The translations under genes and the position numbers were made by a program. 64,000 nucleotides of DNA. Origin: a virus. This document shows positions 6,174 through 52,043 of the stretch, in pieces. The notes under the pieces were generated by a model. It did no database searches and was not told the DNA's origin. It was given only the letters and a program-made list of their open reading frames with translations. Positions within the stretch are counted from its first letter, which is position 1, and the number at the start of each line of letters is the position of its first letter. The stretch lies in IMG/VR virus record IMGVR_UViG_3300028591_000144. One strand, given 5' to 3'.

Positions 6174-6539
6174 ATGGCAGATAAAGGAATGACTATTAAG
6201 CAGGGATTTACTCGTGCGCTGGAAGATTACCGCAAACTTGGTAATATTGAGATGGTAGAGTTTTTTGAGAAGCGTCTTGAACAGCTCAATAAAAAAAGTG
6301 ATGCTCCGAAGAAAAGAACTCCTCGTCAGATCGAAAATGATGCTTACAAGGAAATCATTCTCAATGGAATGAACGGAGAGACTGAGTATACTATTGATGA
6401 TATGCTGATGTACTTCGGACTTCCTCTTGAGATGAAAACTCAGCGTGTTTCTGCTCTTCTGTCTCAGTTGGTAGAAGAAAATAAAGTTGAGCGTGTTTCT
6501 GATACCAAGGGGCATCGTAAGTTTAAACTCGTAGCATAA
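6174..6539 (+). CDS. Small basic protein, family A (paralogues at 8810, 23213 and 51711)
   Basis: Shared architecture: a central K/R-rich stretch (KKSDAPKKRTPRQ) and a C-terminal hydrophobic-x-x-A end. The TTGATACTATG start context is shared with 8810. Confidence 0.7.
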   Translation: MADKGMTIKQGFTRALEDYRKLGNIEMVEFFEKRLEQLNKKSDAPKKRTPRQIENDAYKEIILNGMNGETEYTIDDMLMYFGLPLEMKTQRVSALLSQLVEENKVERVSDTKGHRKFKLVA

Positions 6540-6591
6540 GACCTGCTGGATTTTACCCCCTATGTAAAAACATAGGGGATTTTCTTTTTGG

Positions 6592-6640
6592 CGGTTCATT
6601 TGCGTGCGTTCCTTGCGCAAATGAACCGAATTATCTCTTT
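6592..6640 (+). terminator. Hairpin terminator CGGTTCATTTGCG-TGCGTTCCT-TGCGCAAATGAACCG
   Basis: Preceded by the hairpin CCCCTATG-TAAAAA-CATAGGGG. Read directly. Confidence 0.7.
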
Positions 6641-6753
6641 TGTATACTTTGCATAAAATTTATTATTATTTTTTGTATAATATTTTATATTGCATTTTTC
6701 CTAAAATCTGTTATAATAGTATATGTAAATAAGAAAAAAAAAGGAGATAAATA

Positions 6754-7185
6754 ATGAAGTATCTTATTATGAAATGTGAAGAATTGAATGACCAATACGA
6801 ATGTGACACTAATCGTACTCCTATTACTATGACAGATAATTGGAAAACTTGGTATAAAGATAATAACCCTGATTATTATTTTGAAGTTTATGAATATAAA
6901 AATAATCATTTTACTTGTATTAAAGACTATAATACTTCTATGGAAAATGGAATGGTTTTTGTCTGGTTTGATGAAGATACGCCAGAAGATGAGTTTAATG
7001 TAATTACACGTTTTCCAAATTATAATAGACATATGCCTATGCCAACAGACTTGTATGCCAGAGCAAAAAGAGGAGAAGATTTTGATGATTCGCTTTCAAG
7101 CTGTGGCTATGTCTCTTGGAATGAAGGCGATAAGTACTACGCTTATACAGAATATTATGATAATCGAATTTGTTGTCCTTATTAA
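6754..7185 (+). CDS. Hypothetical protein, 143 aa
   Basis: RBS AAAGGAG. Followed by the long hairpin TGCGCTTTACCAT...ATGGTAAAGCGCA. Confidence 0.65.
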   Translation: MKYLIMKCEELNDQYECDTNRTPITMTDNWKTWYKDNNPDYYFEVYEYKNNHFTCIKDYNTSMENGMVFVWFDEDTPEDEFNVITRFPNYNRHMPMPTDLYARAKRGEDFDDSLSSCGYVSWNEGDKYYAYTEYYDNRICCPY

Positions 7186-7254
7186 ATAAAAAATGCGCTT
7201 TACCATATAAAATAATTTATTTTTAAAAAAAAATGGTAAAGCGCATAACTTATA

Positions 7255-7290
7255 TTGACTTTATAAAAAAAATATGATATAATATATATA
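7255..7290 (+). promoter_or_regulatory. First copy of the second conserved promoter class (TTGACTTTATAAAAAAAATATGATATAATATATATAG)
   Basis: Same motif as the ~30 copies downstream (see the feature at 18863). Confidence 0.65.
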
Positions 7291-7312
7291 GTTAATATAA
7301 GGAGTATTAAAA

Positions 7313-7714
7313 ATGAGTAAAAAAGGCTTAGATGAAAATCAAATTACTTTTTTAATGCAAAAATTAAAAATATCTCGTGAAGAAGCTATTGATATGCTAG
7401 CTTATGATGATGATGTAAATCACGATCGTCCTACAGAGCATGACTTAACTCCAGATCAAAAAGCTTTTGTCCAAGATATGGTAAGACATTGTGAACATAA
7501 AAAATATGGCCATGTTGAAAGAAATCGTAAACCTAATGATTTAAAAATTGCAATTATGGCGGAAATTGCTGAATTTTTACGAGAAGATGCACAAGGTCAA
7601 GTGTATGAAGATGTAGAATTAACAAATATTTCTCGAATGATGCACTTTAAAGTAGGAAATAAAGAGTTTGATCTACAATTAATTGAAAAAAGACATCCAA
7701 ATAAAGAAAAATAA
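7313..7714 (+). CDS. Hypothetical protein, family B paralogue
   Basis: RBS AAGGAG. N-terminus similar to the protein of 5495..5866. Confidence 0.7.
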   Translation: MSKKGLDENQITFLMQKLKISREEAIDMLAYDDDVNHDRPTEHDLTPDQKAFVQDMVRHCEHKKYGHVERNRKPNDLKIAIMAEIAEFLREDAQGQVYEDVELTNISRMMHFKVGNKEFDLQLIEKRHPNKEK

Positions 7715-7971
7715 TATCTTTTTATGAGTTTTTAGGGTAAAAATAATACTTTTTACCCTATTTTTATATAATTTTATAATGGTATTTTTAGCGCATTCTC
7801 CACGCGCGTCCCTCGCCTGGAGAATGCGTTTTTACTATTATATTATACTTTTGTATTTTTTTTATATATTATTTTACTTTTTATACAAAATAATATTTTC
7901 CTGTAATACTTTTTCTTTTATTAATAACAGTCTAATAGCAATATGTTATAGTGGTTTACATAAGAAAGTCG

Positions 7972-8000
7972 TTGACATAATATCTTTTTTTTGTTATAAT
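7972..8000 (+). promoter_or_regulatory. Consensus sigma70 promoter (TTGACA-17-TATAAT)
   Basis: -35 at 7972-7977, 17-nt spacer, -10 at 7995-8000. Immediately upstream of the RBS and ATG at 8038. Confidence 0.7.
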
Positions 8001-8037
8001 GACCACAGAAACCAAGAGAAAAGGAGAGTACAGAAAA

Positions 8038-8133
8038 ATGACTTGGACTTTTATAATTTTGGGTACAATTATTGGATGTTTATGCGGCATGGCCGTATAT
8101 GTACAGATTGAAGAGTGGAAGGATCGACATTGA
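8038..8133 (+). CDS. Small hydrophobic peptide (31 aa, MTWTFIILGTIIGCLCGMAVYVQIEEWKDRH)
   Basis: Perfect RBS AAAAGGAGAG 8 nt upstream, consensus promoter, single predicted TM helix. Below the track's 60-aa cutoff. Confidence 0.5.
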   Translation: MTWTFIILGTIIGCLCGMAVYVQIEEWKDRH

Positions 8134-8279
8134 TGGATACTTATATTACTCTTACTATCCTTTTAGTTTTAAGTATATATGGCATTTATCATCTTCTAAA
8201 AGCTTTTGCAGAGCATGAGCAATTAGAAAAGCGCCAATTTTTTAAACCATTACCTCAATATAAAGGGAAGGATAGATAA
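8133..8279 (+). CDS. Small hydrophobic peptide (48 aa, MDTYITLTILLVLSIYGIYHLL...), start overlaps the previous stop (ATGA)
   Basis: Translationally coupled with 8038..8133. Followed by two hairpin terminators at 8264-8335. Confidence 0.45.
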   Translation: MDTYITLTILLVLSIYGIYHLLKAFAEHEQLEKRQFFKPLPQYKGKDR

Positions 8280-8344
8280 AAATCCTTCCCTTTAAAACGC
8301 TTTCTTGTCGGGCGCTCACCCCGGCAAGAAAGCGTGTTTGACTT

Positions 8345-8432
8345 ATTGTATAATAAATGTAATTTTCCAGGCGATCTTTTTGTGCAATATTCCATCTTGT
8401 ATTTTCCGAAAAACCTGCTATAATAATAAGTG
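8345..8432 (+). promoter_or_regulatory. Early promoter/operator module, copy 9
   Basis: TTGTATAATAAATGTAATTTTCCAGGCGATCTTTTTGTGCAATATTCCATCTTGTATTTTCCGAAAAACCTGCTATAATAATAAG. Confidence 0.6.
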
Positions 8433-8522
8433 TCAAGAGGGAGAGGCGCCGAGCCGCAAGAGTTATGGTTTATCTGCGCGGTTGCCAAAGCCATAAAAGA
8501 AAAATAAAATGCCGAAAACCTC

Positions 8523-8551
8523 TTGACAAGCCACTGAAAATGTGGTATAAT
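8523..8551 (+). promoter_or_regulatory. Consensus sigma70 promoter with extended -10 (TTGACA-17-TGGTATAAT), member of tandem array 1
   Basis: CCTCTTGACAAGCCACTGAAAATGTGGTATAATGAATACAGTCAAGAGG. The promoter is framed by the inverted repeat CCTCTTGAC/GTCAAGAGG. Confidence 0.75.
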
Positions 8552-8633
8552 GAATACAGTCAAGAGGGGTGGTTGGAGCCCATACCCCACGACCGCAAGG
8601 CCAAAAATTTTCAAAGAAATTTGAAAAACCCTC

Positions 8634-8662
8634 TTGACAAACCACACAATGTGTGCTATAAT
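8634..8662 (+). promoter_or_regulatory. Consensus sigma70 promoter (TTGACA-17-TATAAT), array 1
   Basis: -35 at 8634-8639, -10 at 8657-8662. Same CCTCTTGACAA framing. Confidence 0.75.
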
Positions 8663-8809
8663 AAGTATGTAAAGAGGACAGGGGAGAACGCAAGATAGAA
8701 ATTGGGACTTGCTAATGACCCTCCTCCCCCTCCTCTAAACATAAGCCTTGCCGTCGCTAAAAGGCATGAGAATCTGGCGACAAAAAAATTTAGTAAAGAG
8801 GTTGATACT

Positions 8810-9163
8810 ATGTCTACTAAGAAGATGTCCTATGTTGTTGCTGTTGAGAACGCTATCAATGGCAAGATTGATGATGAAGTCATTGAGCGCCTGACTGCGC
8901 TGAAGGCTTCGCTGGAGAAGCGTGCTTCGCGCAAGTCCGAAGGCCCCACCAAGGCGCAGAAGGCTAATGCTGAGCTGGCTGAGCGTATCGCTAATGCGAT
9001 GGTCGCTGGCACTGTCTACGATACCGAGAGTATCAAGGGGCTGGTCGAGGAACTGGCGAACGCCACTCCGCAGAAGGTGTCTCCCCTGATGAAGCACCTT
9101 GTTGCTGAGGGTCGTGTGACCTCTGAGAAGGTCAAGGGCAAGGCTACTTACACCCTTGCCTAA
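8810..9163 (+). CDS. Small basic protein, family A paralogue. Unusually GC-rich.
   Basis: Shares KRASRKSEGPTKAQKANAEL and the GKATYTLA C-terminus with the protein of 6174..6539. Codon usage is strongly G/C-biased compared with its neighbours. Driven by the promoter array at 8.4-8.7 kb. Confidence 0.75.
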   Translation: MSTKKMSYVVAVENAINGKIDDEVIERLTALKASLEKRASRKSEGPTKAQKANAELAERIANAMVAGTVYDTESIKGLVEELANATPQKVSPLMKHLVAEGRVTSEKVKGKATYTLA

Positions 9164-9193
9164 GTAAAAGAGGGGGACTTCCCCCTCTAAATA

Positions 9194-9305
9194 AAAAATC
9201 TTGCCCTTACATGGGCGCAGGGTGGAAGAGCCACGAAACTACAAGTTGCTCTTGCTTGTAATGTAGTGCCACTAAACTGCGTCAATGTAAGGGCAAGATT
9301 TTTTA
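9194..9305 (+). other. Long perfect hairpin (15-bp stem ATCTTGCCCTTACAT...ATGTAAGGGCAAGAT around a ~75-nt GC-rich loop). A structured RNA or elaborate terminator.
   Basis: Read directly. Flanked by the hairpins AAAGAGGGGGACTTCCCCCTCT (9168-9192) and TTTCTCGCTTGCTCAACGG...CGTTGAGCAAGCG (9325-9372). Confidence 0.5.
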
Positions 9306-9380
9306 TTTAAAGTTAAAAGAGTAGTTTCTCGCTTGCTCAACGGTGGTGCGCCATCGTTGAGCAAGCGTCTTTATCTTTTT

Positions 9381-9462
9381 ATACAAATTGCACAATTTCC
9401 AAGTAATATATTTGTGCAATATTCCATCTTGTAATTTTCCTGAAATCTGCTATAATAATAAG
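9381..9462 (+). promoter_or_regulatory. Early promoter/operator module, copy 10
   Basis: ATACAAATTGCACAATTTCCAAGTAATATATTTGTGCAATATTCCATCTTGTAATTTTCCTGAAATCTGCTATAATAATAAG. Confidence 0.6.
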
Positions 9463-9594
9463 TGTCAAGAGGGGACGTCGCCCAAAAGGGACTCCTCTGG
9501 GAGATAAGGATTGCTTGTGAAACCTTACTGCACTGTGGAGTAACAAGAACCAAATGGGACTTGAAAAATGTTGCAGTCTTTTTCAAAAAACCTC

Positions 9595-9623
9595 TTGACA
9601 AACCCCACGGAATGTGGTATAAT
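9595..9623 (+). promoter_or_regulatory. Consensus sigma70 promoter (TTGACA-17-TGGTATAAT), tandem array 2
   Basis: CCTCTTGACAAACCCCACGGAATGTGGTATAATAAAAGTGTCAAGAGG. Confidence 0.75.
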
Positions 9624-9713
9624 AAAAGTGTCAAGAGGGGAACCGAACAGGACAAGTAAGGCACCGCGGATGACCCCAAAGCGACGAGAGGTTGATAAAA
9701 GTTTAAAACCCTC

Positions 9714-9742
9714 TTGACAAACTATACAATGTGTGCTATAAT
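9714..9742 (+). promoter_or_regulatory. Consensus sigma70 promoter (TTGACA-17-TATAAT), array 2
   Basis: CCTCTTGACAAACTATACAATGTGTGCTATAATAAGAATGTCAAGAGG. Confidence 0.75.
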
Positions 9743-9857
9743 AAGAATGTCAAGAGGAATAGACCGAAACCTCCTGTGGAAGAGTTTCAAAAGTGGGAAT
9801 ACAAGGGCCTCCCAAACACTCAAAAAAATAATTGCGCAATAAAATTTGAGAAACCCC

Positions 9858-9886
9858 TTGACAAGCCTTAAAAAGTATGGTATAAT
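9858..9886 (+). promoter_or_regulatory. Consensus sigma70 promoter (TTGACA-17-TGGTATAAT), array 2, closest to the 9922 gene
   Basis: CCCCTTGACAAGCCTTAAAAAGTATGGTATAATAAATATAG. Confidence 0.75.
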
Positions 9887-9921
9887 AAATATAGAAAAAA
9901 ACAAGAAAGGAAATAAAAACA

Positions 9922-10152
9922 ATGGCTGAAATTACTTATGATGTGGTAAAAAATATTGGCGTGATTGCTGATAATGGCGCGTGGGAAACGCAGGTAAATA
10001 TGATTTCTTGGAATCACGGGGCGCCTAAATTTGACATTCGCAAGTGGAATGTTGAAACTGACCGTATGAGCAAGGGTATTTCTTTAACTGAAAGTGAAGC
10101 TCGTGAACTGGTAAAGGTTCTGACTAAATACTTTGAGGAAGAGGATGAATAA
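9922..10152 (+). CDS. PC4-like / YdbC-like ssDNA-binding protein (76 aa)
   Basis: The segment FDIRKWNVETDRMSKGISLTESEARELVKVL matches the PC4 C-terminal domain signature (IDIREYW...KGISLNPEQW..L). Confidence 0.6.
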   Translation: MAEITYDVVKNIGVIADNGAWETQVNMISWNHGAPKFDIRKWNVETDRMSKGISLTESEARELVKVLTKYFEEEDE

Positions 10153-10154
10153 CA

Positions 10155-10322
10155 ATGAAAACCTATGTTGTTAAAGAATATTTGAACAACTATAGGGGTT
10201 TTCGGTGGGTAACTGTTGCTTACAATCCTGAAGAAAAAGTAGAAGAGCATTGCAAACCACCTTGTCTTTTTGAGGACTATAAATCTACTGAAAGTAAAAT
10301 CCATAAGTATGAAGTTGAATAA
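10155..10322 (+). CDS. Small protein (55 aa, MKTYVVKEYLNNYRGFRWVTVAYNPEEK...)
   Basis: The ATG lies 2 nt after the upstream stop. Followed by the terminator at 10344-10392. Below the track cutoff. Confidence 0.45.
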   Translation: MKTYVVKEYLNNYRGFRWVTVAYNPEEKVEEHCKPPCLFEDYKSTESKIHKYEVE

Positions 10323-10343
10323 ACTTCATACTTTTTTTATTAG

Positions 10344-10392
10344 CGGTTTCTGCTCGGGCGCCTTTGGCGCGCAGAAACCGAGTTTTAATTAA
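10344..10392 (+). terminator. Hairpin terminator CGGTTTCTGC...GCAGAAACCG plus T-tract. Marks the end of the early cassette region.
   Basis: Read directly. Confidence 0.7.
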
Positions 10393-10689
10393 TTAAAAAA
10401 TAATGAAATTTTACACACAAAAAAGAAGCAATAGGTAACAAAGTTGTAATTCCCATTATCGCGGCTCGCAAGCGACCGCAGGGAGCGCAGCGATGCCGAA
10501 ATTTTCATTATACCATATTTTACAAATTTTGTCAACTGTTTTTTTGCACAAATTTCTTCGAAAATTTTTCCCATTTTTGTGCATAATGCCGAATTGTTAA
10601 TTAATTAACTAACAATCTGTAACCGTTTTGTAACTATTTGTTTCCAGCTTGTAACTTTTACCTTAAGCCAGCCCTTCCGCGGCGAATGA

Positions 10690-10930
10690 CCTAAAAAATA
10701 CCTATAAAGCCCTCGCGCGGTGACAAAAGTCGACCTCTAACTAAGCGCCCTATGGCGCAACAAATCAACTCTGGTCCGGCTGCCCGAGGACAACCTAGCC
10801 CGGGGACAAATATCGACCTAGCAAAACTCTATAAAGGCCCGGGGTGGTGACAAAAGTTGGCCTTCTAGATAACAAAAGTAGCATTTTCCTGAAAGTATAA
10901 CGCCGCAACAAAAGTTGACTTTTTAAAAAA
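10690..10930. repeat. Four or five dispersed copies of GGTGACAAAAGTYGRCC (GGTGACAAAAGTCGACC, GGGACAAATATCGACC, GGTGACAAAAGTTGGCC, GCAACAAAAGTTGAC)
   Basis: Read directly. Spacing is 40-60 bp. Confidence 0.55.
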
Positions 10931-10945
10931 AATTTGATATAATAT
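10913..10945 (+). promoter_or_regulatory. Class-2 phage promoter TTGACTTTTTAAAAAAAATTTGATATAATATT. It drives a short structured transcript rather than a CDS.
   Basis: Followed by the hairpins CCTCTTTTTTTGAGG and CCGCACG...CGTGCGG and then a T-tract. Confidence 0.55.
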
Positions 10946-11099
10946 TAAAAAAACCTCTTTTTTTGAGGCCGCACGCTCTTTAAACCGCCTGGTCTAAAAT
11001 CTCTGAACCGTGCGGCTATTATTTTTAGTCGAGCGGTCGATAAACGACAGTCGATTATAGAACAATTCCTGCTGTATCAACCTCTCTGCATTAATCAGT

Positions 11100-11700
11100 A
11101 TATATGTAACATTTTGTTACCTATATACAGTCACATAGTAACATTTTGTTACTTATATTTAAAACGACATTTTTGTCACCATTTTACGACATTTTTGTCG
11201 TTTTTAATTATCCGACATTTTTGTCGCAAAAACGACATTTTTGTCATATACACTGTTATTACGACATTTTTGTCGTTTTATTTAAAACGACATTTTTGTC
11301 GCCAGCACATCTTAATAAAACGACAATTTTGTCGTTTTCAGCAACAATTTTGTCACACCCTACTGTATAATAGTAACATTTTGTTACCTTCTAAGTAACA
11401 TTTTGTTACCTATACACAGTCATATAGTAACATTTTGTTACCTACAAAGTAACATTTTGTAACCATTTAGGTAACATTTTGTTACTTACACGCAGCACAA
11501 TAGTAACATTTTGTTACTTAAATTAAGTAACATTTTGTTACCATAACACCGTCATATAGTAACATTTTGTTACCTTTTAAGTAACATTTTGTTACTCACA
11601 CGCAGCGTAATAGTAACATTTTGTTACCTATATATCACTTATTAAAATAACATTTTGTTACCTATATACAGTCACATAGTAATATTTTGTTACCTGCAAG
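11100..11700. repeat. Array of about 20 copies of the inverted-repeat site GTAACATTTTGTTAC, interleaved at 11160-11360 with about 9 copies of ACGACATTTTTGTCGTT
   Basis: Each unit is a 5-bp arm, a 5-nt spacer and a 5-bp arm (GTAAC-N5-GTTAC, ACGAC-N5-GTCGT). Copies recur every 25-35 bp. Two minus-strand winged-helix genes are adjacent. Confidence 0.8.
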
Positions 11701-11704
11701 TGCA

Positions 11705-11732
11705 TAAAAAAAGAGCGCGCAATCGCGCACTC
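11705..11732. terminator. Bidirectional hairpin AAGAGCGCGCAATCGCGCACTCTT flanked by A- and T-runs
   Basis: It terminates the minus-strand genes 12225-11733. Confidence 0.65.
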
Positions 11733-12038
11733 TTAAAACATATCTACTACTCTTGGTTGATAGTAAAAGTTATATACGTTATTATTCATATCATATACTA
11801 GATAATGCTTATTCTTTAAATCGTTTAAACCTAAATAATATTGACGCTTAGTTATCTTATATTTATCTAGTATCTTTTGAGTTATTTCTAGTTCGCCATT
11901 CTCTTTTGGACTATCTATAATGGCGCAGTATACCAATATACCAGATTTATTTAAAATAGGAAATACTTGTGTATACAACCAAGTATTTGTTATACACTTT
12001 ACATTGTTATTTATTTTTATTCTAATTGCCATATGCAC
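11733..12038 (-). CDS. Winged-helix DNA-binding protein (101 aa). Candidate binder of the adjacent repeat array.
   Basis: The C-terminal segment GELEITQKILDKYKITKRQYYLGLNDLKNKHYLVY has an HTH-plus-wing pattern. This is one of the few minus-strand ORFs, and it sits next to the IR array. Confidence 0.5.
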   Translation of the reverse strand: MHMAIRIKINNNVKCITNTWLYTQVFPILNKSGILVYCAIIDSPKENGELEITQKILDKYKITKRQYYLGLNDLKNKHYLVYDMNNNVYNFYYQPRVVDMF

Positions 12039-12996: not shown

Positions 12997-13032
12997 TTGA
13001 TTTTTAAAAAAAAATTTGTTATAATATATATA
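12997..13032 (+). promoter_or_regulatory. Class-2 phage promoter (TTGATTTTTAAAAAAAAATTTGTTATAATATATATAG)
   Basis: Motif match. Downstream there is only a 37-codon ORF, so it may drive an sRNA. Confidence 0.5.
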
Positions 13033-13559: not shown

Positions 13560-13990
13560 ATTACTGCGTTAGCTTTACTTTAAAAAATATTTGGCGATAG
13601 CCTTATATTATATTACTAGATTTATATTATTTTACTACTTCAAAATTATGTTCTATAATATAATCTATAGTAGTATTTATATTATAATCCTACTACTCCC
13701 ATATATCTAATATATAATTACCATCTAACTATAATAAATTACATATATTACTAAATAATTCATATATACTATTTGTTAATAATATTTCATTAGGAGTAGT
13801 ATTATTTTTATCTAACTATATTAATATAATCCAAGTATTTAATATAGTATTTAATATATTTCTTATATTTTGTTCTTTCATATTACCATACCTTTATATA
13901 TTTATTAGATTTATATATATTATATATAATAAAATATATATATTATTATAGTAGTATCTATATTATTATTATATTATATATATTATATAT
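13560..13990. other. Extremely AT-rich stretch (long TA/TAT runs). Candidate DNA-unwinding element.
   Basis: Composition read directly. Lies immediately upstream of the iteron array. Confidence 0.55.
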
Positions 13991-14520
13991 ATATTAATAT
14001 TAATATTACTGGGTTCAGAACTGACCCCATTACGGCTATTTTGCGACACAATTTTATTTAAAAATAGAATATACGACCAGTTGCACGGTCGTGTGATGGA
14101 CGATTGTTTAACGAACGATAGTTTAATAATTATCCTGTGACGATATCTTTGCCCTATGTCTGTAATGGGTTCAAATCTGACCCCAGTCATTTTTGACCCC
14201 ATAACGGTATTGGGTTCAAAATTGGACCCTATTTCCGCTATCAAAATGCAAATTTGAACCCATTACACCTATCTAGGTCAATTCTGACCCCATTACAGTA
14301 ATGGGTTCAAATCTGACCGCATAGATTTTTATCATAGATAATTATTTAACTGGGTCAATTCTGACCCCATTACATACAATGGGTCCAATTTTGACCCCTA
14401 CCACAGTTTAATGGGTTCAGAATGGACCCCATTACCGCTATAAAAGGCCATCTTTGACCCCATTACAGCACATTAAGTGCAATTCTGACCCCATTACCGC
14501 AATGGGTTCAAATCTGCACT
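13990..14520. repeat. Iteron array: 12 or more copies of about 24 bp, (A)ATGGGTTCAAATCTGACCCCATTAC (an imperfect palindrome ATGGGT...ACCCCAT)
   Basis: Read directly. Variants include GGGTTCAGAACTGACCCCATTAC, GGGTCAATTCTGACCCCATTAC and GGGTTCAGAATGGACCCCATTAC. Confidence 0.8.
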
Positions 14521-22235: not shown

Positions 22236-22350
22236 AAGAGAGATAAGAAAAATCTCGACGGAGACATTGTGAAATGACAATAAACGGTTAGCGCGGAACA
22301 CCATCGCGCCTTATCTCTCTTATTATAAATATTTCTAAGAAGTGCTATTA
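22236..22350 (+). ncRNA. Promoter-driven leader or small RNA enclosed by the inverted repeat GAGAGATAAG...CTTATCTCTC, immediately upstream of a tRNA
   Basis: Class-2 promoter at 22195. The 10-bp bracket stem is read directly. Confidence 0.45.
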
Positions 22351-22353
22351 ATT

Positions 22354-22426
22354 GGGGATGTAGCTCAATTGGTAGAGTAGTGGTTTCTTAAATCATTGGT
22401 TGCGGGTTCAAGTCCCTCTATCCTCA
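22354..22426 (+). tRNA. tRNA, anticodon CTT (Lys) in the most consistent fold
   Basis: Acceptor GGGGATG/TATCCTC (2 G-U pairs), D-arm GCTCAATTGGTAGAG, anticodon arm GTGGT-TTCTTAA-ATCAT, T-loop TTCAAGT. The T-stem has one mismatch. Confidence 0.55.
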
Positions 22427-22429
22427 CTA

Positions 22430-22690
22430 TTAGGTCTATTCTTCATCCTAGTGCTACAATGAAGGAGCAAGATGTCAATGCAGAACATCCGTTTTGTTAA
22501 GGCTTTTTGAATGTGGAAAAGCTGAATGTGAGATTGCCACATGGGTAATCATGTCATCCAGCATAAAGTGGTGCGGGAGTTTTAGACCCCAGCTGGGCAA
22601 AGGCGTAGCGACCATCTAAGATAAAAGTCCCAATGGTGGAAGGGACAAAAAACCGGCATCTGGGCAAGCCACGCTTTAAGCGTTAAACCA
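22430..22690 (+). ncRNA. About 260-nt GC-rich non-coding region following the tRNA; a putative structured RNA
   Basis: No ORF. GC content is clearly above the surroundings. Ends at the next class-2 promoter. Confidence 0.35.
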
Positions 22691-22749
22691 AGACACCAAA
22701 AACCTTTATTTGATTTTTTAAAAAAAATTTGGTAAAATATATATGTAAG

Positions 22750-22865
22750 TTAAAGAACGGTAGCATAACCGTAAGCAAGGTGCTATGCTGGAATGGCAAT
22801 TCCAAAGGGTTCTGTGTTAACAGAAGTAAGGCAAGTGCAAATCCACCCTAAATTTCTTTAAGAAA
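22750..22865 (+). ncRNA. Promoter-driven small RNA bracketed by TTAAAGAA...TTCTTTAA. Contains T-arm-like hairpins (GGAATGGCAATTCC, GCAAGTGCAAATCC).
   Basis: Class-2 promoter at about 22700. No ORF. Confidence 0.45.
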
Positions 22866-22924
22866 TCTTTTAATTGATTTTTTAAAAAAAATATTATAAA
22901 ATATATATGTAAGATAAAGAAATG

Positions 22925-23000
22925 AGTTCTTTAAAAAGAACTTGCGGCCCAAACGGTGAGAGAGGGGCTGGGTTAATGCTCCTCCAAAAAAACTTAAAGA
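22925..23000 (+). ncRNA. Promoter-driven small RNA (hairpin AGTTCTTT-AAA-AAGAACT, a GC-rich stem, an A-run)
   Basis: Class-2 promoter at about 22873. No ORF. Confidence 0.4.
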
Positions 23001-23212
23001 ATCTCTCAATTGAAAATTTAAAAAAAATTTGGTAAAATATAAATGTAAGGTTGAGAGATAAAAAAAAATAAAGTGTCGAGGATATGGTGGTAGATGAGTG
23101 TCAGAGAGAAGCGTTCACTGCTAAGCACTCTCGCTAAGGAACCTCGTAAAAAAATAGCTAAGTGCAAAAATAAAAACTCCAAGTGTGAAGAAATACAAAA
23201 TTCTTATATGAG

Positions 23213-23605
23213 GTGTATACTATGGCTACTTCTAAGATTACTGAGCGCGATATCTACAATGCGATGATTGATGGCACGATTGATGCCGAGACGATGGCCG
23301 AGTTTGCTGAGAAGAAGCTGGCTCAGCTGGACAAGCGGAATGAGTCCGCGAAGAAGCGTGCTGCGAAGAAGCGCGCAGAGAGCGATGAGCTGACGGAGAA
23401 GATTTTTGAACTGCTCTCCGAAGAGGCTATGGACCGCGTAGCGGTGTTTGAGGCCCTGCAGGCCGACGGTGTAGAGACTACCCTGGGCAAGATTACTTCT
23501 CGTCTGAGCAACCTTGTAAAGGAAGGTCGCGCCAATAAGGCAAAGGGCAAGGCTCAGGGTGAAGATGGTAAGGCTCATGAGGTGACGTTCTACACTGTCG
23601 CCTGA
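23213..23605 (+). CDS. Small basic protein, family A paralogue. GC-rich.
   Basis: KKLAQLDKRNESAKKRAAKKRAESDELT is shared almost exactly with the protein of 51711..52043. C-terminus HEVTFYTVA. Long promoter-proximal leader. Confidence 0.75.
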   Translation: MYTMATSKITERDIYNAMIDGTIDAETMAEFAEKKLAQLDKRNESAKKRAAKKRAESDELTEKIFELLSEEAMDRVAVFEALQADGVETTLGKITSRLSNLVKEGRANKAKGKAQGEDGKAHEVTFYTVA

Positions 23606-23641
23606 GGTCTTCTCCTTAATTAAATAAGCTACCTCCTTTTT

Positions 23642-23690
23642 CTCCTAACCGAGTCTTCTCCTCCTTTCTCTCGGTTAGGAGATTTTTATT
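23642..23690 (+). terminator. Hairpin terminator CTCCTAACCGAG...CTCGGTTAGGAG plus T-tract
   Basis: Read directly. Confidence 0.7.
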
Positions 23691-23753
23691 TGATTTTATT
23701 AAAAAAATATTATATAATATATATATAAGATAAAGAAATGAGGAATTATAAAA

Positions 23754-24269
23754 ATGACTGCTATTAAGAATTTTCGTTCAACAATTATTAATTGGTTATG
23801 TAGTCATGGATTTTCTAATATTGATATTGATTTTAAAAAAGATTTTGGTTATACTATTGACCCAGACTCTAATATTCGATATATTAATATTGGCATAGAA
23901 GATTTTGAAGATACAAATAATTATTTTTCTCAATTTCTTTTTGAATATGGTTTAAAATATTTAAAAATTTCTGCTCCTGTTCTTGCGTTTTTTCATGAAC
24001 TTGGTCATCATATGACTTTAAATAATTTTACAGATGAAGAAATTTGGTTATGTTCTTTTGCTAAAGGTTTTGACAATGTTGGTTCAGAGCAAGATTGGTA
24101 TACAAATTATTGGCTTATTGGAGATGAATTTGCAGCTAATATTTGGGAAATTAATTATATTAATTCTCATATTGAAGATGTTCAAGAATTTTGTAATATC
24201 TTTGAAAAAGCCTGGTCAGCAATCTTTGAAGAAACCACTATGGAAGAACTGCTAAATGAGGTAATTTAA
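23754..24269 (+). CDS. Putative zinc metallopeptidase (HExxH motif: AFFHELGHHMT), 171 aa
   Basis: HEXXH motif only. The family was not resolved. Confidence 0.5.
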   Translation: MTAIKNFRSTIINWLCSHGFSNIDIDFKKDFGYTIDPDSNIRYINIGIEDFEDTNNYFSQFLFEYGLKYLKISAPVLAFFHELGHHMTLNNFTDEEIWLCSFAKGFDNVGSEQDWYTNYWLIGDEFAANIWEINYINSHIEDVQEFCNIFEKAWSAIFEETTMEELLNEVI

Positions 24270-46661: not shown

Positions 46662-46934
46662 ATGGAAAATACCTCAACAGCTGAATCTGTCTTTGATAGG
46701 CTTGTAAAGGTTCTTAATACGAATTGCGGTTATGTCGATGAAGAACCAGCAGAAAAGGTAGCAAGACGAATAATGAGAGCTGGACTTTTAAGAGAAGAAA
46801 AACCGCAAAAGTGGGAGTTTCTTTTCAATGCGCTTGATGGAACTCCACGTTACGGGTGTCCTGTTTGTAAGGAACTTGAATGGCGCAAAACAAACTTCTG
46901 CCCTAATTGTGGAGCAAGGATGGAGAAAAGCTGA
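46662..46934 (+). CDS. Zn-ribbon protein of the CPNCGA family (CPVCKELEWRKTNFCPNCGARMEKS)
   Basis: Family motif. Confidence 0.6.
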   Translation: MENTSTAESVFDRLVKVLNTNCGYVDEEPAEKVARRIMRAGLLREEKPQKWEFLFNALDGTPRYGCPVCKELEWRKTNFCPNCGARMEKS

Positions 46935-47004
46935 TGAGCATTTACATTAAAAACTATGAGCTTCTTAAAAAGCGGTAATCAAAACAAAGAAAGGAGGATA
47001 AATA

Positions 47005-47187
47005 ATGGCTCATTGGAAAAAGCATCCTGTGTATCATGGCGATGACACGAGTGGTTTTATTGATCCAAATTGGTGTTGCTCCAACTGCGGTGGACAAGCC
47101 CCGATAGACCCTTACTGGGGTATCTAGGATCTTGTTGATACTTGCCCACATTGCGGTGAAAAAATGAAATATGAGGAGGACGAATGA
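47005..47187 (+). CDS. Small Zn-ribbon protein, 60 aa, 1 in-frame TAG (CCSNCGG...CPHCGEKM)
   Basis: Perfect RBS AAGGAGG. Continuous only with TAG decoded. Confidence 0.4.
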
Positions 47188-47612
47188 TGACTAAGTACAT
47201 TGAATGCGAGAAAGTAATAGAAGCCTTTGACGACCCAACTGTAGAAAGACATTATGGTGATGTTTGCCCGGAGAGTGTTATTCGTGTCATCGAGCAAATC
47301 CCCGCAGCTGATGTACTACCTCGTGATGAAGCTATCAAAATGGGAGCTGAACTTGCTGCAATGCATGGTTCTGATGCCACTTCACAACAGCTTGAAGAAG
47401 CGTATCTCGAAGGCGTTGAGTACGGTATGACCCGGCGCGATGTACGACCTGTTGTGCAAGGGCGATGGGTTGAGTTTAAGGCAGACATGCCTCTCAGAAG
47501 AAATGAATGTTCGGAGTGTGGATACATTACAAATCCCTGGTTAGCTCATGTGTATAATTTCTGTCCTAACTGCGGCGCGGATATGCGAGAGTCATTGAAA
47601 GAGGAAAAATAA
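47187..47612 (+). CDS. Zn-ribbon protein of the CPNCGA family (CSECGY...FCPNCGADMRE), 141 aa
   Basis: Family motif. Confidence 0.6.
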   Translation: MTKYIECEKVIEAFDDPTVERHYGDVCPESVIRVIEQIPAADVLPRDEAIKMGAELAAMHGSDATSQQLEEAYLEGVEYGMTRRDVRPVVQGRWVEFKADMPLRRNECSECGYITNPWLAHVYNFCPNCGADMRESLKEEK

Positions 47613-47615
47613 AAT

Positions 47616-47960
47616 ATGATTTTTGAAAAAATATGTTTTTTCATTGTTATCCTTGCTATAGCTATAATTATTTATATAATTGGTTTTCTTACTGGAACTG
47701 CATATGAAGAAAATGAAATAAAAAAGAAAATAAATTCTGATGATTTTGTTATTCATCATATGCCAAAAACACCAGTTCAACTTTCTGCTTCTTTACATAT
47801 ACCAAATGGGGACGATATTTATGAAGATATAAATAAAAGTATTCTTATAGGAAAACTTGCTAAAGAGCTTCCACGCTTTTGGAGATTAGAAAAAGAATAT
47901 AGTGACCATTTACAATATACAGCTTACATAACAATAATTCCAGAAGATAAGGAGAATTAA
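47616..47960 (+). CDS. Membrane protein, 114 aa (N-terminal TM helix)
   Basis: ORF with the hydrophobic N-terminus IFEKICFFIVILAIAIIIYIIGF. Confidence 0.55.
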   Translation: MIFEKICFFIVILAIAIIIYIIGFLTGTAYEENEIKKKINSDDFVIHHMPKTPVQLSASLHIPNGDDIYEDINKSILIGKLAKELPRFWRLEKEYSDHLQYTAYITIIPEDKEN

Positions 47961-47965
47961 TAACT

Positions 47966-48319
47966 TTGAGAAATCGTGAAGAAAGACGTAAATATGAGCG
48001 TGCTATAAAGAAAGATAAACGTGCGTCTAAATGCCCGCTATGCGGTAGACCTGCCTTATTCTTTACTCAAGGTCGTATTAAACCAGGAGCAGAAGAAAAA
48101 GAAAAACTTGAAAAGGAAGATATTGATGTAGTTCTTGTTTGCGAGAACTGCGGCAAAGTTGTGTACGATGAACCTGAAATTGGCAAGCTTCTTCAACCTG
48201 GTGTGTATCTACCACTTAAACTAGATATTTTTGAATATGCTTTGCGGCATCCTGATGAAGTTGATAAGGCACTTGCTGAACCAGAAATTATTGATGCTGA
48301 TTTTACAGAAGTAGAATAA
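47966..48319 (+). CDS. Zn-ribbon protein (CPLCGRP...CENCGK). The start codon is uncertain (TTG).
   Basis: ORF from the track. RBS AAGGAGA 10 nt upstream of the TTG. Confidence 0.45.
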   Translation: MRNREERRKYERAIKKDKRASKCPLCGRPALFFTQGRIKPGAEEKEKLEKEDIDVVLVCENCGKVVYDEPEIGKLLQPGVYLPLKLDIFEYALRHPDEVDKALAEPEIIDADFTEVE

Positions 48320-48321
48320 TT

Positions 48322-48365
48322 AATAATCGACCGACGATCGATTGACGATTATCGGTTGATTTTTT
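48322..48365 (+). terminator. Hairpin terminator AATCGACCGACGATCGATTGACGATTATCGGTTGATT plus T-tract
   Basis: Read directly. Confidence 0.65.
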
Positions 48366-48424
48366 ATTTTTTTTATGTTATAATATATTTTGTAAAAAAT
48401 AAATAATGTTTTTAAGGAGATATT

Positions 48425-49630
48425 ATGAAGAAATTTATTTCTATTATCCTTGCGCTTATTATGGTCTTTGCGCTTTGCGCGTGTGGTGATACTGTTGCAC
48501 CAGCGCCTGTTCCCACTGAAGATGCTGGCGTGCATGGTATGAAAGTTGGTTTCATTTATCTGCACGACAATGCTAGCACATATGATAAGAATTTTCTAGA
48601 AGCTGCTGAGACCGCTTGCAACAATATGGGTGTAACTTGTATTAACAAGACAAATATCCCCGAAGGTGGCGAGTGCTATGACGCTGCTGCTGAATTGGTT
48701 GATATGGGTTGTAGTATTGTTTTTGCTGATAGTTTCGGGCACGAAAGTTATATGCTGCAGGCAGCTAAAGATTTTCCTGATGTTCAGTTTTGCCATGCTA
48801 CTGGTACTATGGCACATACTGAAAAACTTCCTAATTTCCATAATGCTTTCGCATCTATCTATGAAGGACGTTATCTTGCAGGCGTTGCAGCTGGTATGAA
48901 GCTTAATGAGATGCTTGATAATGGTACTATTCAGCCTGATGAAGTTGTTATTGGTTATATTGGAGCATATCCTTATGCTGAAGTTATTTCTGGTTATACT
49001 TCTTTTTTCCTTGGTGCGCGGTCCGTCTGCCCGTCCGCAACTATGAAAGTCCAGTATACAAACTCTTGGTATGATGAATCGCTTGAAAAAGAAGCTGCTA
49101 ATAATCTAATTGGGCAGGGCTGCGTTCTTATTTCACAGCACGCAGATTCTATGGGAGCACCTACGGCTTGTGAACTTGCTGGAGTTCCTAATGTTTCTTA
49201 TAATGGTAGCACTGTCGAAGCATGCCCAAACACATTTATCGTTTCTTCTAAGATTAACTGGGTGCCTTACTTTGAATATATAATTCAGTGTGTGGTTAAT
49301 GGTAATCCTATTGATACTGATTGGACGGGTACAATGGCAACTGGTTCTGTAATGCTTACTGATGTAAATACTAAGGTTGCGGCTGTTGGTACTGTTGAAA
49401 AGCTTGCTGAAGTTGCTGACCAGCTAATGCATGAAGAAATCCACGTATTTGATACTACTAAGTTTACTATTAATGGAGCGTTTCTTGATGAATATATGGC
49501 AGACGTAGATTCTGATACAGATTTTACACCTGATACTAATGTAATTAGTGATGGAGTATTCTGGGAAAGTTTTTATAGGTCTGCGCCTTATTTCGATATA
49601 ATTATTGATGGTATTACTGTCATTGGATAA
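48425..49630 (+). CDS. BMP-family (Med/TmpC/PnrA-like) nucleoside-binding lipoprotein, 401 aa
   Basis: Lipoprotein signal peptide with a lipobox (ALIMVFALCACG). Overall pattern of the BMP family of ABC-transporter substrate-binding proteins. The gene is GC-richer than its neighbours. Confidence 0.65.
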   Translation: MKKFISIILALIMVFALCACGDTVAPAPVPTEDAGVHGMKVGFIYLHDNASTYDKNFLEAAETACNNMGVTCINKTNIPEGGECYDAAAELVDMGCSIVFADSFGHESYMLQAAKDFPDVQFCHATGTMAHTEKLPNFHNAFASIYEGRYLAGVAAGMKLNEMLDNGTIQPDEVVIGYIGAYPYAEVISGYTSFFLGARSVCPSATMKVQYTNSWYDESLEKEAANNLIGQGCVLISQHADSMGAPTACELAGVPNVSYNGSTVEACPNTFIVSSKINWVPYFEYIIQCVVNGNPIDTDWTGTMATGSVMLTDVNTKVAAVGTVEKLAEVADQLMHEEIHVFDTTKFTINGAFLDEYMADVDSDTDFTPDTNVISDGVFWESFYRSAPYFDIIIDGITVIG

Positions 49631-49639
49631 AATTTAATA

Positions 49640-49690
49640 TACAACTGTTAATGAGGGAGGTATTTACTTCCCTCATTAATCTTTTTATTG
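49640..49690 (+). terminator. Hairpin terminator AATGAGGGAGGTATTTACTTCCCTCATT plus T-tract
   Basis: Read directly. Confidence 0.8.
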
Positions 49691-49752
49691 ATTTTATAAA
49701 AAAAATATGATATAATATTTATAGAAATTGAGAAATTGAGGTATTTTTTTAA

Positions 49753-51531
49753 ATGACTCCTTTTGAAAAGCTTTCTGAGAAAGATAAAGATTTAATTGAT
49801 GATTATATCACTGCATTTGCGTCAAAAGGCGATGATAGTATTATTCGTTATAATCGTTCAGACCTTAGTACTATTCTTAGCGAATGGAATACTGAAAAGC
49901 GGACTCTTTTTAAACTTCTTGGTGAAGAACTGATTCAGCGTCGTCTTTTCGTATATAAGCAGAATCCAGAAGGTTTGATTAAGAATTTTGAGTGTCACCA
50001 TGAAGATTCTCAGTATAAGAATTTTATCCAGTGGTGGTCTTGGCAAGTAAAGCATAAAGATAGTGCGAAATTTGAAATTGAGATGCCTGGGCGCACTCTT
50101 ACTTTTTCAAAATATTTTTATATTGAAGAAGCTTTTTCTGATAAATCTCTTGCAGAAAATTCGTATCCTGGTACAGATTATAAAGTAATATTTGATGACA
50201 AGTCTTCTTTCAAGGTTTCTTCTGGTATGAAGCCTATGAAAATTCTCCATAAGTTTATTGAAAAGTTTGGAACTCCAGAAGATGAAAAGATGTTTGAGGA
50301 GTTTCGCATTTGGCATTCTCAGCTTCTTAATCAAAAGACTGTTGATGGAGAATTGTGCCTTTCTATCCATCCGCTTGATTATATGACGATGAGTAGCAAT
50401 AATAATGGGTGGACTAGCTGTATGCGCTGGTCTGATAAATATGGCAATATTGAACATGGTGATTATTGCGCTGGTACTCTAGAGTGTATGAACTCACCTT
50501 ATATTGTTATTGCCTATCTACATAATCCTAAGCATACTTATAGTGTTAAAACTTATGGTAAGGTTGATAACTGGGAATGGAATAGTAAACAGTGGAGAGA
50601 ACTCTTTATTGTTAATGAAGGTGTAATCTCAGAGATAAAGGCTTATCCATATCAGGACGAGAATCTTACAAATGGCTGCATTACTTGGCTTAAGGAACTT
50701 TGCAATAAAAACCTTGACTGGAAATTTGAAGATGAAGAAATTGATGTTTCTAAGCCTATTGAAACAGCAGATAGTATTTATTATCTTGATTTCATTAAGC
50801 CTACTTATATGTATAAGGACATTGGCACCCTTAAAAAGCATGCCGGTCGTGTAAACTACGATGTTTTGCGTGATTCTAAAAAAATTATGCGTCATCAGTA
50901 TAATTTTAGTCGTAAAACTGAAGATAATAATAAAGAAGATTTCTTTCTCGATATTCCTTATGGTGGTATTGCTACTTGTATGTGGTGTGGTCATTATTTT
51001 GATGATGAAGGATATGATAATGCACTTTTGTGCCCCAATTGCGAATATGTAAAATGTTGTCCTATATGCGGAGAGCCAATTGATTCTGATAGCGTTTATA
51101 TTGAGGATGTTGAGGCTGAGATTTGTTATGATTGCTATGAAGATAAAACTTGTGTAGATTCTTTTAGTGGCGAATCTCATTTAATTGATAATATGGATAG
51201 TCTTTGTATTTTGCTGGGATATGACGAATATGAAAATCCGGTATATTATGATGAATGGGCTTATTGTTATTATCCAGAAAATAACTGGTCATATAAGGCT
51301 GTTATGACTAAGCTTCCTAAAGTAGAAAATTATCATAATTATGTTACTCTTGATATGATTCAGCCTGGTAAGACTGGAGATTTTGCTGATGCTTTTAATA
51401 TTTGGCTTGGTCGTGATAAGTCTGCAGACCTTATAAATTGGTATAGTAATTGTATTAATGAGTACAATTTGTACTATGATTGGAACAAGAATCCTCTGTT
51501 TGATGAAAATGACCAAATGATACTCTTTTAA
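49753..51531 (+). CDS. Large hypothetical protein, 592 aa, with a C-terminal Cys-cluster region (CMWCGHY...CPNCEYVKCCPICGE...CYDCYED)
   Basis: Long ORF. Class-2 promoter at 49688. Confidence 0.7.
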   Translation: MTPFEKLSEKDKDLIDDYITAFASKGDDSIIRYNRSDLSTILSEWNTEKRTLFKLLGEELIQRRLFVYKQNPEGLIKNFECHHEDSQYKNFIQWWSWQVKHKDSAKFEIEMPGRTLTFSKYFYIEEAFSDKSLAENSYPGTDYKVIFDDKSSFKVSSGMKPMKILHKFIEKFGTPEDEKMFEEFRIWHSQLLNQKTVDGELCLSIHPLDYMTMSSNNNGWTSCMRWSDKYGNIEHGDYCAGTLECMNSPYIVIAYLHNPKHTYSVKTYGKVDNWEWNSKQWRELFIVNEGVISEIKAYPYQDENLTNGCITWLKELCNKNLDWKFEDEEIDVSKPIETADSIYYLDFIKPTYMYKDIGTLKKHAGRVNYDVLRDSKKIMRHQYNFSRKTEDNNKEDFFLDIPYGGIATCMWCGHYFDDEGYDNALLCPNCEYVKCCPICGEPIDSDSVYIEDVEAEICYDCYEDKTCVDSFSGESHLIDNMDSLCILLGYDEYENPVYYDEWAYCYYPENNWSYKAVMTKLPKVENYHNYVTLDMIQPGKTGDFADAFNIWLGRDKSADLINWYSNCINEYNLYYDWNKNPLFDENDQMILF

Positions 51532-51710
51532 TTGATTTTTTAAAAAAAATATTATATAATATAATTGTAAATGAGAGAGAAATAAAAAACTCCACTCATT
51601 CATAAAAAAATAAAAAAAATATATTGAAAAGGAAATGTAAAAAAAATGTCTGAAGAACTTAAAATTACTGAACGTGAACTTTATACTCTATTATTGATGG
51701 GAACTTTGAT

Positions 51711-52043
51711 ATGAATGCACTGGTGGAGTTTGCTAATAAGAAACTCGCCCAGCTGGATAAGCGTAATGAGAGCGCTAAGAAACGTGCTGCTAAGAAACGT
51801 GCGGAGAATGATGAGCTTACTCAGGTCGTTCTTGGTGTCCTGACTAGTGAACCTCTGTCTCGTGGTGATGTCCTTGAGGCTGTACTTGCTACTGGTGAGT
51901 ATACTGAAGAGGCTATGACTCTTGGTCGTGTCGGTTATCAATTGAGTAAATTGGTTCGAGAAGGTTTCGCCGTCAAACAGGAGGCAGTTATTGAAGGAGA
52001 GGATGGCAAGAATAAGCATATTGCTGTTTATTCTCGCGCCTAA
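51711..52043 (+). CDS. Small basic protein, family A paralogue. A possible N-terminal extension starts at 51647 in another frame.
   Basis: KKLAQLDKRNESAKKRAAKKRAENDELT. The upstream 22-codon ORF (MSEELKITERELYTLLLMGTLI) matches the N-terminus of the 23213 paralogue but is in a different frame. Confidence 0.6.
   Translation: MNALVEFANKKLAQLDKRNESAKKRAAKKRAENDELTQVVLGVLTSEPLSRGDVLEAVLATGEYTEEAMTLGRVGYQLSKLVREGFAVKQEAVIEGEDGKNKHIAVYSRA

Follow-up and report, generated by a model that had tools for sequence, protein, structure and literature searches.

Why would a phage genome of low GC content carry short genes, some with a GC content and codon usage far from those of their neighbours, behind promoters of their own, and what might their products do? 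This question is raised by the IMG/VR virus record IMGVR_UViG_3300028591_000144, of which a stretch of 64,000 nucleotides (nt), called the window here, has been analysed. An earlier note on this DNA had singled out four copies of a small basic protein, probably very abundant and histone-like. The window, with a GC content of 33.6% and short, densely packed open reading frames (ORFs) predominantly on the + strand, comes from a large uncultured phage, of which it is an early and middle region; the promoters used by the host are of the TTGACA/TATAAT kind and its ribosome sites of the GGAGG type. The four genes, designated A to D, belong to one protein family, predicted to be of the winged-helix type, and with about even confidence its members are regarded here as abundant early nucleic-acid-binding proteins (most likely binding DNA) that act as architectural proteins or global regulators. 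The family, the extent and persistence of its gene-specific codon bias in genomes of 30-40% GC, and the covarying leader of its messages appear to be undescribed so far; the winged-helix fold and codon selection in highly expressed phage genes are well established.

The four members are encoded as follows (aa, amino acids; pI, isoelectric point; GC3, GC content at third codon positions):

6174..6539, + strand: A, 121 aa, pI 8.8, GC 0.396, GC3 0.361
8810..9163, + strand: B, 117 aa, pI 9.3, GC 0.542, GC3 0.636
23213..23605 as an ORF, 23222..23605 from its ATG, + strand: C, 127 aa, pI 5.6, GC 0.536, GC3 0.625
51646..51714, + strand: N-terminal fragment of D, 22 codons, GC 0.29
51711..52043, + strand: 3' part of D, 110 aa as called, GC 0.462, GC3 0.369

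All four ORFs of about 110-130 aa exist as the earlier note had described them, except that translation of C almost certainly starts at the ATG at 23222, because all homologues begin with MATSK or MANK. Their kinship has also been confirmed. In BLASTP comparisons, C and D are 52% identical (E 1e-33), while A-B, A-C and B-C are related with E values of about 1e-5. Profiles built from separate sets of database homologues, which makes the comparison non-circular, align end to end with hhalign: the B family and the C/D family match across 121 columns (probability 97.8%, E 1e-12), and A matches the B family with E 6e-10 and the C family with E 3e-7. A hidden Markov model of the four proteins found no fifth copy in a six-frame translation of the window.

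The shared features that had been noticed in these proteins hold as well. The Lys/Arg-rich centre includes a 23-residue block, KKLAQLDKRNESAKKRAAKKRAE, identical in C and D, whose coding DNA differs at 13 of 69 bases, every change being synonymous; it is thus selection on the protein, rather than recent gene conversion, that accounts for the identity. The proposed C-terminal hydrophobic-x-x-A signature corresponds to an invariant terminal Ala preceded, 3-4 residues earlier, by an aromatic residue. Proteins of the family as a whole are some 115-135 aa long. What does not hold is a uniformly basic character, since only A and B are basic (pI 8.8 and 9.3), while C has a pI of 5.6 and an intact orthologue of D (P0121, 132 aa) one of 5.35.

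With 4083 clusters (50% identity; E <= 1e-3), the family is large, and its members sit on contigs of 97-343 kb full of small unannotated ORFs, from rumen and pig-gut metagenomes, often with two to five paralogues per 10 kb. About 70 such loci, numbered with the prefix L, were fetched from the metagenomes for comparison. Among the INPHARED phages, neither megablast with positions 6000-12000 nor tblastn with A, B, C and two distant relatives gave a match; a pattern scan of IMG/VR yielded no confirmed relative, and the literature offered no description of the family or of GC-rich gene islands in such phages.

The earlier note had described the GC content and codon usage of all four genes as far above the average. 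Measured against 29 long + strand ORFs of the window (GC 0.352 +/- 0.046, GC3 0.257 +/- 0.084), this is strongly so for B (z-scores of 4.1 for GC and 4.5 for GC3) and C (4.0 and 4.4) and moderately so for D (2.4 and 1.3), but not for A (0.9 and 1.2). In B and C, every lysine is encoded by AAG (14 of 14 and 15 of 15, hence 29 of 29 jointly, against 34% in the reference genes) and 14 of 18 leucines by CTG. The pattern recurs across the fetched loci, where family genes reach a GC content of 0.50-0.61 (GC3 up to 0.84) and the rest of the locus 0.27-0.42, alongside an AT-like minority of members resembling A and D. In 75 distinct family genes, only 7.9% of codons end in A, compared with 26% in neighbouring ORFs. 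Family-wide, AAG (0.88), CAG (0.98), GAG (0.71), CTG (0.55) and GGC plus GGT (0.90) are preferred and GGG (0.02), CGA (0.02), AGA (0.09) and ATA (0.00) are scarce, AGG being avoided too, while GCT, ACT, GTT and CGT are the commonest codons of their boxes. As T-ending codons are kept and GGG is avoided, the preference is codon-specific and not plain GC enrichment, and such a pattern is what selection on translation would be expected to give. The bias has also been long maintained and is no fresh import, given that C and its GC-rich orthologues (56-78% identity) use different codons at 28-53% of identical residues. Furthermore, other genes behind equally perfect promoters use ordinary codons (GC3 0.13-0.38), so the bias belongs to the family and not to early genes generally.

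Two explanations of this composition were discarded. That the ORFs are non-coding GC islands is ruled out by the synonymous substitution pattern and the confident folds described below, and avoidance of poly-A runs in a Lys-rich gene cannot be the sole cause, as GCA, GGA, ACA and GTA are avoided too. The bias is sharpest at the third position and ends at the gene borders. A sharp GC step at the borders would also be seen if the GC-rich genes had lately entered as foreign cassettes from a donor of higher GC, or were spreading horizontally among these phages, and their composition had not been ameliorated. Copies at several positions and in tandem arrays, homing-endonuclease-like genes nearby in L065 and L067, a leader more conserved than the coding sequence and a range of members from AT-like to GC-rich, as amelioration would yield, fit such an origin. 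It is nevertheless quite improbable, for the departure in composition is greatest at third positions and concerns particular codons (GGG, CGA and AGG avoided, T-ending codons kept), it persists though orthologues differ at about 40% of synonymous codons, and every homologue with context has AT-rich flanks. No bacterial donor was found either: among the 185,579 genomes of GTDB the family has a single match, on a 6-kb AT-rich contig of a pig-gut metagenome bin; this is probably a mis-binned phage and no evidence for such a donor.

A second feature, of some GC-rich members, is the company of particular tRNA genes, which bears on their codon usage:

22354..22427, + strand: isolated gene for tRNA-Lys(CUU), which reads AAG only, about 0.8 kb upstream of C

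This is the only tRNA gene of the window outside the main cluster at 60-64 kb. Two tandem members in L002 are directly preceded by genes for Lys(CUU) and Gln(CUG), and one member each in L020, L024 and L042 has a Gln(CUG) gene as its neighbour. All isolated tRNA genes found at a distance of up to about 1 kb from GC-rich members are of these two kinds, which read exactly the codons that the family uses almost exclusively; other tRNA genes of such loci, for example Ile(UAU) in L027 and L036 and Leu(UAG) and Ala(UGC) in L010, are further off. The association is specific, though the sample is small (4-5 independent loci).

This linkage, together with AAG at all 29 lysines of B and C, the family-wide predominance of AAG, CAG and GAG and the presence of an RNA ligase gene in the window, would suit a private channel of translation, in which these G-ending codons are read by phage C34 tRNAs. 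The bias would then have nothing to do with the expression level, and the family would still be made when the host U34 tRNAs for Lys, Gln and Glu, favoured targets of anticodon nucleases, are scarce or cut, while its leader would be an autoregulatory operator; in a variant, its translation would be independent of a host pool without C34 isoacceptors. Defence systems that cleave tRNA-Lys, and phage tRNAs that rescue infection, have been reported (PMC10264068, PMC11464382). Both forms of this proposal are rated as improbable, because the bias also spans codons for Leu, Gly, Arg, Ala, Thr and Ile that are unrelated to U34 tRNAs. Besides, the tRNA linkage is confined to 4-5 of some 50 distinct loci, a tRNA-Glu(CUC) was not seen, and other early genes use AAA freely.

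The third feature is found upstream of the coding sequence. The 150 nt before the ATG of GC-rich members are more conserved than the coding sequence itself, and before C they make up a structured leader, here named type I:

23067..23221, + strand: type I leader of C, conserved and structured
23077-23081 with 23142-23146: helix P1
23096-23100 with 23126-23130: helix P2
23110-23113 with 23119-23122: helix P3
23181-23185: AAGTG
23210-23215: Shine-Dalgarno (SD) sequence GAGGTG

The three nested helices, recognised by eye and in part by RNAalifold, are followed by a near-invariant A-rich stretch, AATAGYTAAGWGCAAAAATAAAAAAC, by AAGTG and by the extended SD GAGGTG, which lies 6-7 nt ahead of ATG-GCT or ATG-ACT. 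A covariance model built on 36 leaders and searched in 448 kb gave 65 matches, all on the + strand and, wherever this was cross-checked, with the 3' end on the start codon of a family gene; its one match in the window, at 23067-23224, precedes C. When the leaders are aligned with the model as a guide, the paired fraction of cells is 96.2%, a value reached by 0 of 500 shuffles (83.4% in these); it falls to 23-48% when the partners are slid. Both bases have changed in 10 of 15 pairs. These counts are somewhat inflated by the fitting of the alignment to the model, which favours structure. Within P1, alternations such as CG/AU/UA, GC/CG/UA, GC/AU and AU/GC extend over dozens of sequences. Searches of 22300-23800 and 5800-10400 against Rfam 15 at E <= 1 produced nothing but chance matches, and with gathering thresholds applied across the window the type I leader likewise matched no family. 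The type I leader is thus a well-supported new structured RNA motif tied to one protein family, and a candidate cis-regulatory element (65 copies, 10 of 15 pairs covarying). Members with the GAGGTG SD have a median GC3 of 0.634, compared with 0.48 in the others, with relatedness uncorrected.

Another leader, named type II, precedes B in the window, while other B homologues carry a type I leader:

8669..8809, + strand: type II leader of B, ending in AAAGAGGTTGATACT before the ATG
8745-8749 with 8761-8765: H1 of a putative H-type pseudoknot
8753-8757 with 8777-8781: H2 of the same putative pseudoknot

H2 covaries with the B homologue of L069 (GTCGC/GCGAC against CCTAC/GTAGG). The pseudoknot is tentatively proposed from these two sequence variants, covariation with L069 being its sole basis, and the minimum-free-energy fold of the B leader alone is no better than shuffles (z -0.65). 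Member A has a short leader with the ribosome site AAAGGA. As regards the start context, which the earlier note had taken to be identical in three members, TTGATACTATG occurs exactly at A and B only, and C reads TGTATACTATG.

A conserved non-coding element of about 95 nt lies at about 22757-22850, between the first two promoters of C. It is also found in L002 (7680-7775), L003, L007, L009 and L016, between promoters or tandem family genes, and its identity between phages is about 85% where the proteins next to it share about 60%. Possible identities are a small RNA and an element of an untranslated region; it has no Rfam match, and its single-sequence fold is not significant (z -1.4).

The transcription signals of the family genes belong to two classes of sigma-70-type promoter:

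6113..6141, + strand: promoter of A, perfect TTGACA-N14-TGC-TATAAT, with a weaker one at 5989-6016
8523-8551 and 8634-8662, + strand: promoters of B, two perfect extended consensus sites in tandem
about 8398-8426 and about 8482-8510, + strand: weaker look-alikes before B
22710-22738, 22874-22902 and 23010-23038, + strand: promoters of C, class 2, TTGATT/TTGAAA-17-TAAAAT, in tandem
23643-23681: terminator-like hairpin after C
51532..51560, + strand: single class-2 promoter of D
52061-52091: terminator hairpin after D

Ten perfect TTGACA-N14-TGN-TATAAT sites occur in the window, rising to 15 when one mismatch is allowed, against 0.06 expected. The second class, with an A/T spacer (TTGATT-17-TAWAAT; TTGATTTTTTAAAAAAAATATTATAWAAT), is represented by 19 copies between 7255 and 62307 against 0 expected. 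This class drives many genes, in L002 a tRNA-Lys gene, and it is conserved in related phages. Of the four tandem consensus promoters that had been credited to the 8810 copy, two are perfect (8523 and 8634) and the others are weaker look-alikes; in L069 and L070, the B homologue is preceded by three perfect promoters. Nor does the family lie behind the strongest promoter stack, as had been thought, since the strongest one in the window, with perfect promoters at 9595, 9714 and 9858, feeds the ORF at 9922-10152. This ORF encodes a 76-aa PC4/YdbC-like single-stranded-DNA-binding protein (Pfam PF02229, E 2e-8). A PC4-like gene adjoins B homologues elsewhere as well, directly downstream in L071 and L072, as in the window, and directly upstream in L069 and L070.

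The early consensus promoters show a further regularity, in that the -35 box of each lies within CCCTCTTGAC and the transcript begins with its reverse complement, GTCAAGAGGG. The motif has 12 copies against 1.2 expected and is also present in the related phages L067-L070. RNA reaching from one promoter to the next (6024-6117, 8432-8527, 8559-8638, 9464-9599, 9630-9718 and 9749-9863) is predicted to form a long-range hairpin, with z between -2.9 and -5.2 in 4 of the 6 regions. A role of this hairpin as processing site, insulator or operator is conceivable. A long, near-perfect hairpin at 9177-9322 (AAAAAATCTTGCCCTTACAT...ATGTAAGGGCAAGATTTTTT) separates B from the next terminator/promoter module. 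Downstream of C, the gene at 23754-24269 (171 aa, HELGHH, GC3 0.13) keeps its position beside C homologues in L001-L003; it may encode a small metalloprotease-like protein and has no Pfam match.

What kind of protein is encoded behind these signals is suggested by structure prediction. The AlphaFold model of B (predicted local distance difference test, pLDDT, 90) has helices at 8-16, 22-41 and 48-63 followed by a winged helix, and that of C (pLDDT 89) a helix at 8-17, a long helix at 22-64 and, again, a winged helix. According to these models, the proteins of the family are composed of a conserved N-terminal helical module, with the Lys/Arg-rich helix, and a C-terminal winged helix-turn-helix (HTH). 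At the level of the fold they belong to the winged-HTH superfamily, having a three-helix core with the HTH and a beta-hairpin wing after it. Sequence searches place it in no named family. In Pfam, the four proteins of the window gave sub-threshold winged-helix matches only (MarR_2, 12 bits against 27), and of 143 diverse relatives, 7 matched HTH_20, 2 PadR and 1 FUR at E <= 0.01; by the Pfam gathering threshold, the family belongs to none of PadR, MarR, ArsR (HTH_20) or Fur. The PHROGs matched by the four proteins and the 143 relatives, 19455 and 30233, are both annotated as "unknown function". PDB sequence profiles gave nothing below E 0.01, Foldseek against BFVD returned unnamed viral proteins only, and the N-terminal module has no match in Pfam or PDB.

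A winged helix with differing N-terminal partners suits ordinary sequence-specific regulators equally well, that is, temporal-switch repressors or activators, or autorepressors of early promoters, with one operator per paralogue and an unremarkable abundance. This alternative is unlikely, though with an appreciable chance of being right. In regulators of which few copies are needed, a codon bias this extreme would be unusual, as would tandem consensus promoters along with an extended SD and a conserved leader; the family has no domain for dimerisation or sensing like those of Fur, PadR or MarR, and no Pfam assignment at threshold.

Under the reading preferred here, these would be abundant early winged-helix proteins. 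Each gene forms its own monocistronic cassette, in which between one and three sigma-70-type promoters are followed by a leader and a ribosome site, then by the ORF, with a terminator at the end. The GC-rich cassettes (B, C and most relatives) carry what is expected of very high output: tandem promoters, a folded leader with an A-rich linker, the extended GAGGTG SD, favoured second codons, an ORF nearly free of A-ending or rare codons, and, for some, matching tRNA genes nearby. Host RNA polymerase would thus make these proteins in bulk early in infection. The winged helix would bind nucleic acid, most likely DNA, and the proteins would act as abundant architectural proteins or global transcription regulators, with divergent N-terminal modules giving the paralogues different partners or targets. 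The leader, in turn, may stabilise the mRNA, make translation more efficient or serve in autoregulation. The analysis shows the kinship, the fold, the composition and its conservation, the covariation in the leader, the promoter matches and the lack of conservation of the frame change in D; what we infer is the abundance, the timing, the binding of DNA and any role of the leader.

Of the product proposed in the earlier note, very high abundance and nucleic-acid binding retain indirect support, the former from the tandem promoters, structured leader, GAGGTG SD and lasting codon bias, the latter from the fold. A histone-like or nucleoid-remodelling role fares worse, as no similarity to HU, IHF or H-NS was found and two of the four members are acidic; "histone-like" is a guess. 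Several points also weigh against the preferred reading as a whole. The supposed abundance is deduced from the design of the sequence, and this design is not universal, as A and D have neither the bias, nor the strong SD, nor the type I leader. Proteins that coat DNA are not usually acidic, yet C and intact D have an acidic character overall. The winged helix is generic and also serves protein-protein and RNA contacts, and the leader alignment, as mentioned, somewhat flatters its own structure. Finally, the host may serve AAG and CAG codons poorly, because genes for Lys(CUU) and Gln(CUG) tRNAs adjoin several members, and simple adaptation to the host fits badly with this.

The fourth member, D, poses a question of its own, since it is split by a frame change, its first 22 codons forming a separate ORF which matches the family N-terminus, as had been recognised. 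The downstream frame is -1 relative to this ORF and the two overlap, an arrangement that would be compatible with a programmed -1 ribosomal frameshift. A search with repaired D, however, retrieved the intact P0121 (95% identical), encoded on L063 and L064, two independent assemblies that are identical to the window across 270 nt except for one extra T: TATACTTCTATT corresponds to TATAC-TCTATT in the window. The base lost between 51687 and 51688 (ACT|CTA) is one T of a TT dinucleotide; no homopolymer is involved, nor is the indel at 51700-51715, where it had been suspected. There is no slippery heptamer at the site, 8 of the 9 members of the 90% cluster of D have 129-133 aa, and the 110-aa form is confined to the source contig of the window. 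As the change is private to one contig and the relatives are intact, it is not programmed, and recoding is hardly credible here. The one-base difference looks like a strain mutation or an assembly error private to this assembly, and its annotation as recoding is unwarranted. Reading TGA as Trp, considered because a UCA tRNA is present, does not rescue D either, for the read-through frame gives an unrelated sequence. The TGA stop of the 22-codon ORF overlaps the ATG of the next one (ATGA), which could permit re-initiation and an N-terminally truncated D protein.

Beyond the family, the window carries a tRNA cluster, a tmRNA and a ROOL RNA, among other features of interest. The phage-borne tmRNA lies at 55784-56125 (127 bits), and the full-length ROOL RNA (62393-63012, 274 bits) adjoins the tRNA cluster. 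A tRNA with anticodon UCA at 61786-61856, called tRNA-SeC by ARAGORN and barely above threshold with the tRNA model of Rfam, may be a UGA suppressor, hinting at stop-codon recoding elsewhere in this phage; a tRNA with anticodon CUA is present in L021. A tRNA match at 56428-56574 is 147 nt long and may contain an intron. A second pair of early paralogues (5495-5866 and 7313-7714; 30% identity, E 4e-9), with no Pfam match, is interleaved with A and B, and a minus-strand block (10.4-15.2 kb) includes a 400-bp stretch, 13601-14000, with a GC content of just 13%.

If the preferred reading is true, the family would be among the strongest early products of widespread large phages of the rumen and gut, and an entry point to the study of how they take over the cell. 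A lasting bias restricted to certain genes of a 33% GC genome would also be a natural case in which translational selection, phage tRNA supply and evasion of tRNA-directed defence could be told apart.

Comparison with known systems helps to situate these proteins. The closest structural matches are regulators of the Fur, PadR, ArsR and MarR families, such as FurB of M. tuberculosis (2o03), Rv3488 (5zhc) and RosR of H. salinarum (6ez1), with which the family shares 8-24% sequence identity. Unlike Fur, PadR and MarR, it has no metal site, sensor domain or C-terminal dimerisation helix, as the chain ends at the wing (..Y-x-x-A), and unlike these and ArsR proteins it has an N-terminal module (TERxIY...G..D, then the Lys/Arg-rich helix). 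In Sso10a, a winged-helix chromatin protein of archaea, the rod of the dimer is formed by a long helix at the C-terminus; the long helix of the family lies at the N-terminus, and the likeness to Sso10a or Lrs14 is no better than to any other winged helix. The family cannot be counted among Zalpha domains either: PDB profiles reach E values of just 0.13-0.7, no Pfam z-alpha match was obtained for the four proteins (E <= 1) or, among the top 25 families listed, for the 143 relatives (E <= 0.01), and the Asn and Tyr of helix 3 that contact Z-DNA are not conserved, as judged by eye only.

In terms of role, the counterparts suggested are p6 of phi29 and TF1 of SPO1, small early proteins of Firmicute phages that are made at very high copy number from strong host-type promoters and that bind and remodel phage DNA for replication or transcription. 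TF1 is HU-like, while p6 has its own fold. The role is the one proposed in the earlier note; by similarity and net basic charge, however, the family belongs neither with HU, IHF and TF1, nor with H-NS, nor with p6. It has no kinship with p6 or TF1 in sequence or fold, its abundance and DNA binding are presumed, and two of its four members are acidic. With regard to the leaders, the parallel is the translational operator of T4 gene 32, a pseudoknot in the 5' leader that is bound by the gene's own product. There is no similarity in sequence or structure to this system; what both have in common is a structured 5' leader before a phage nucleic-acid-binding protein that is abundant, or here presumed to be so, and autogenous control through the type I leader and the putative pseudoknot of B would, by analogy, be a natural hypothesis.

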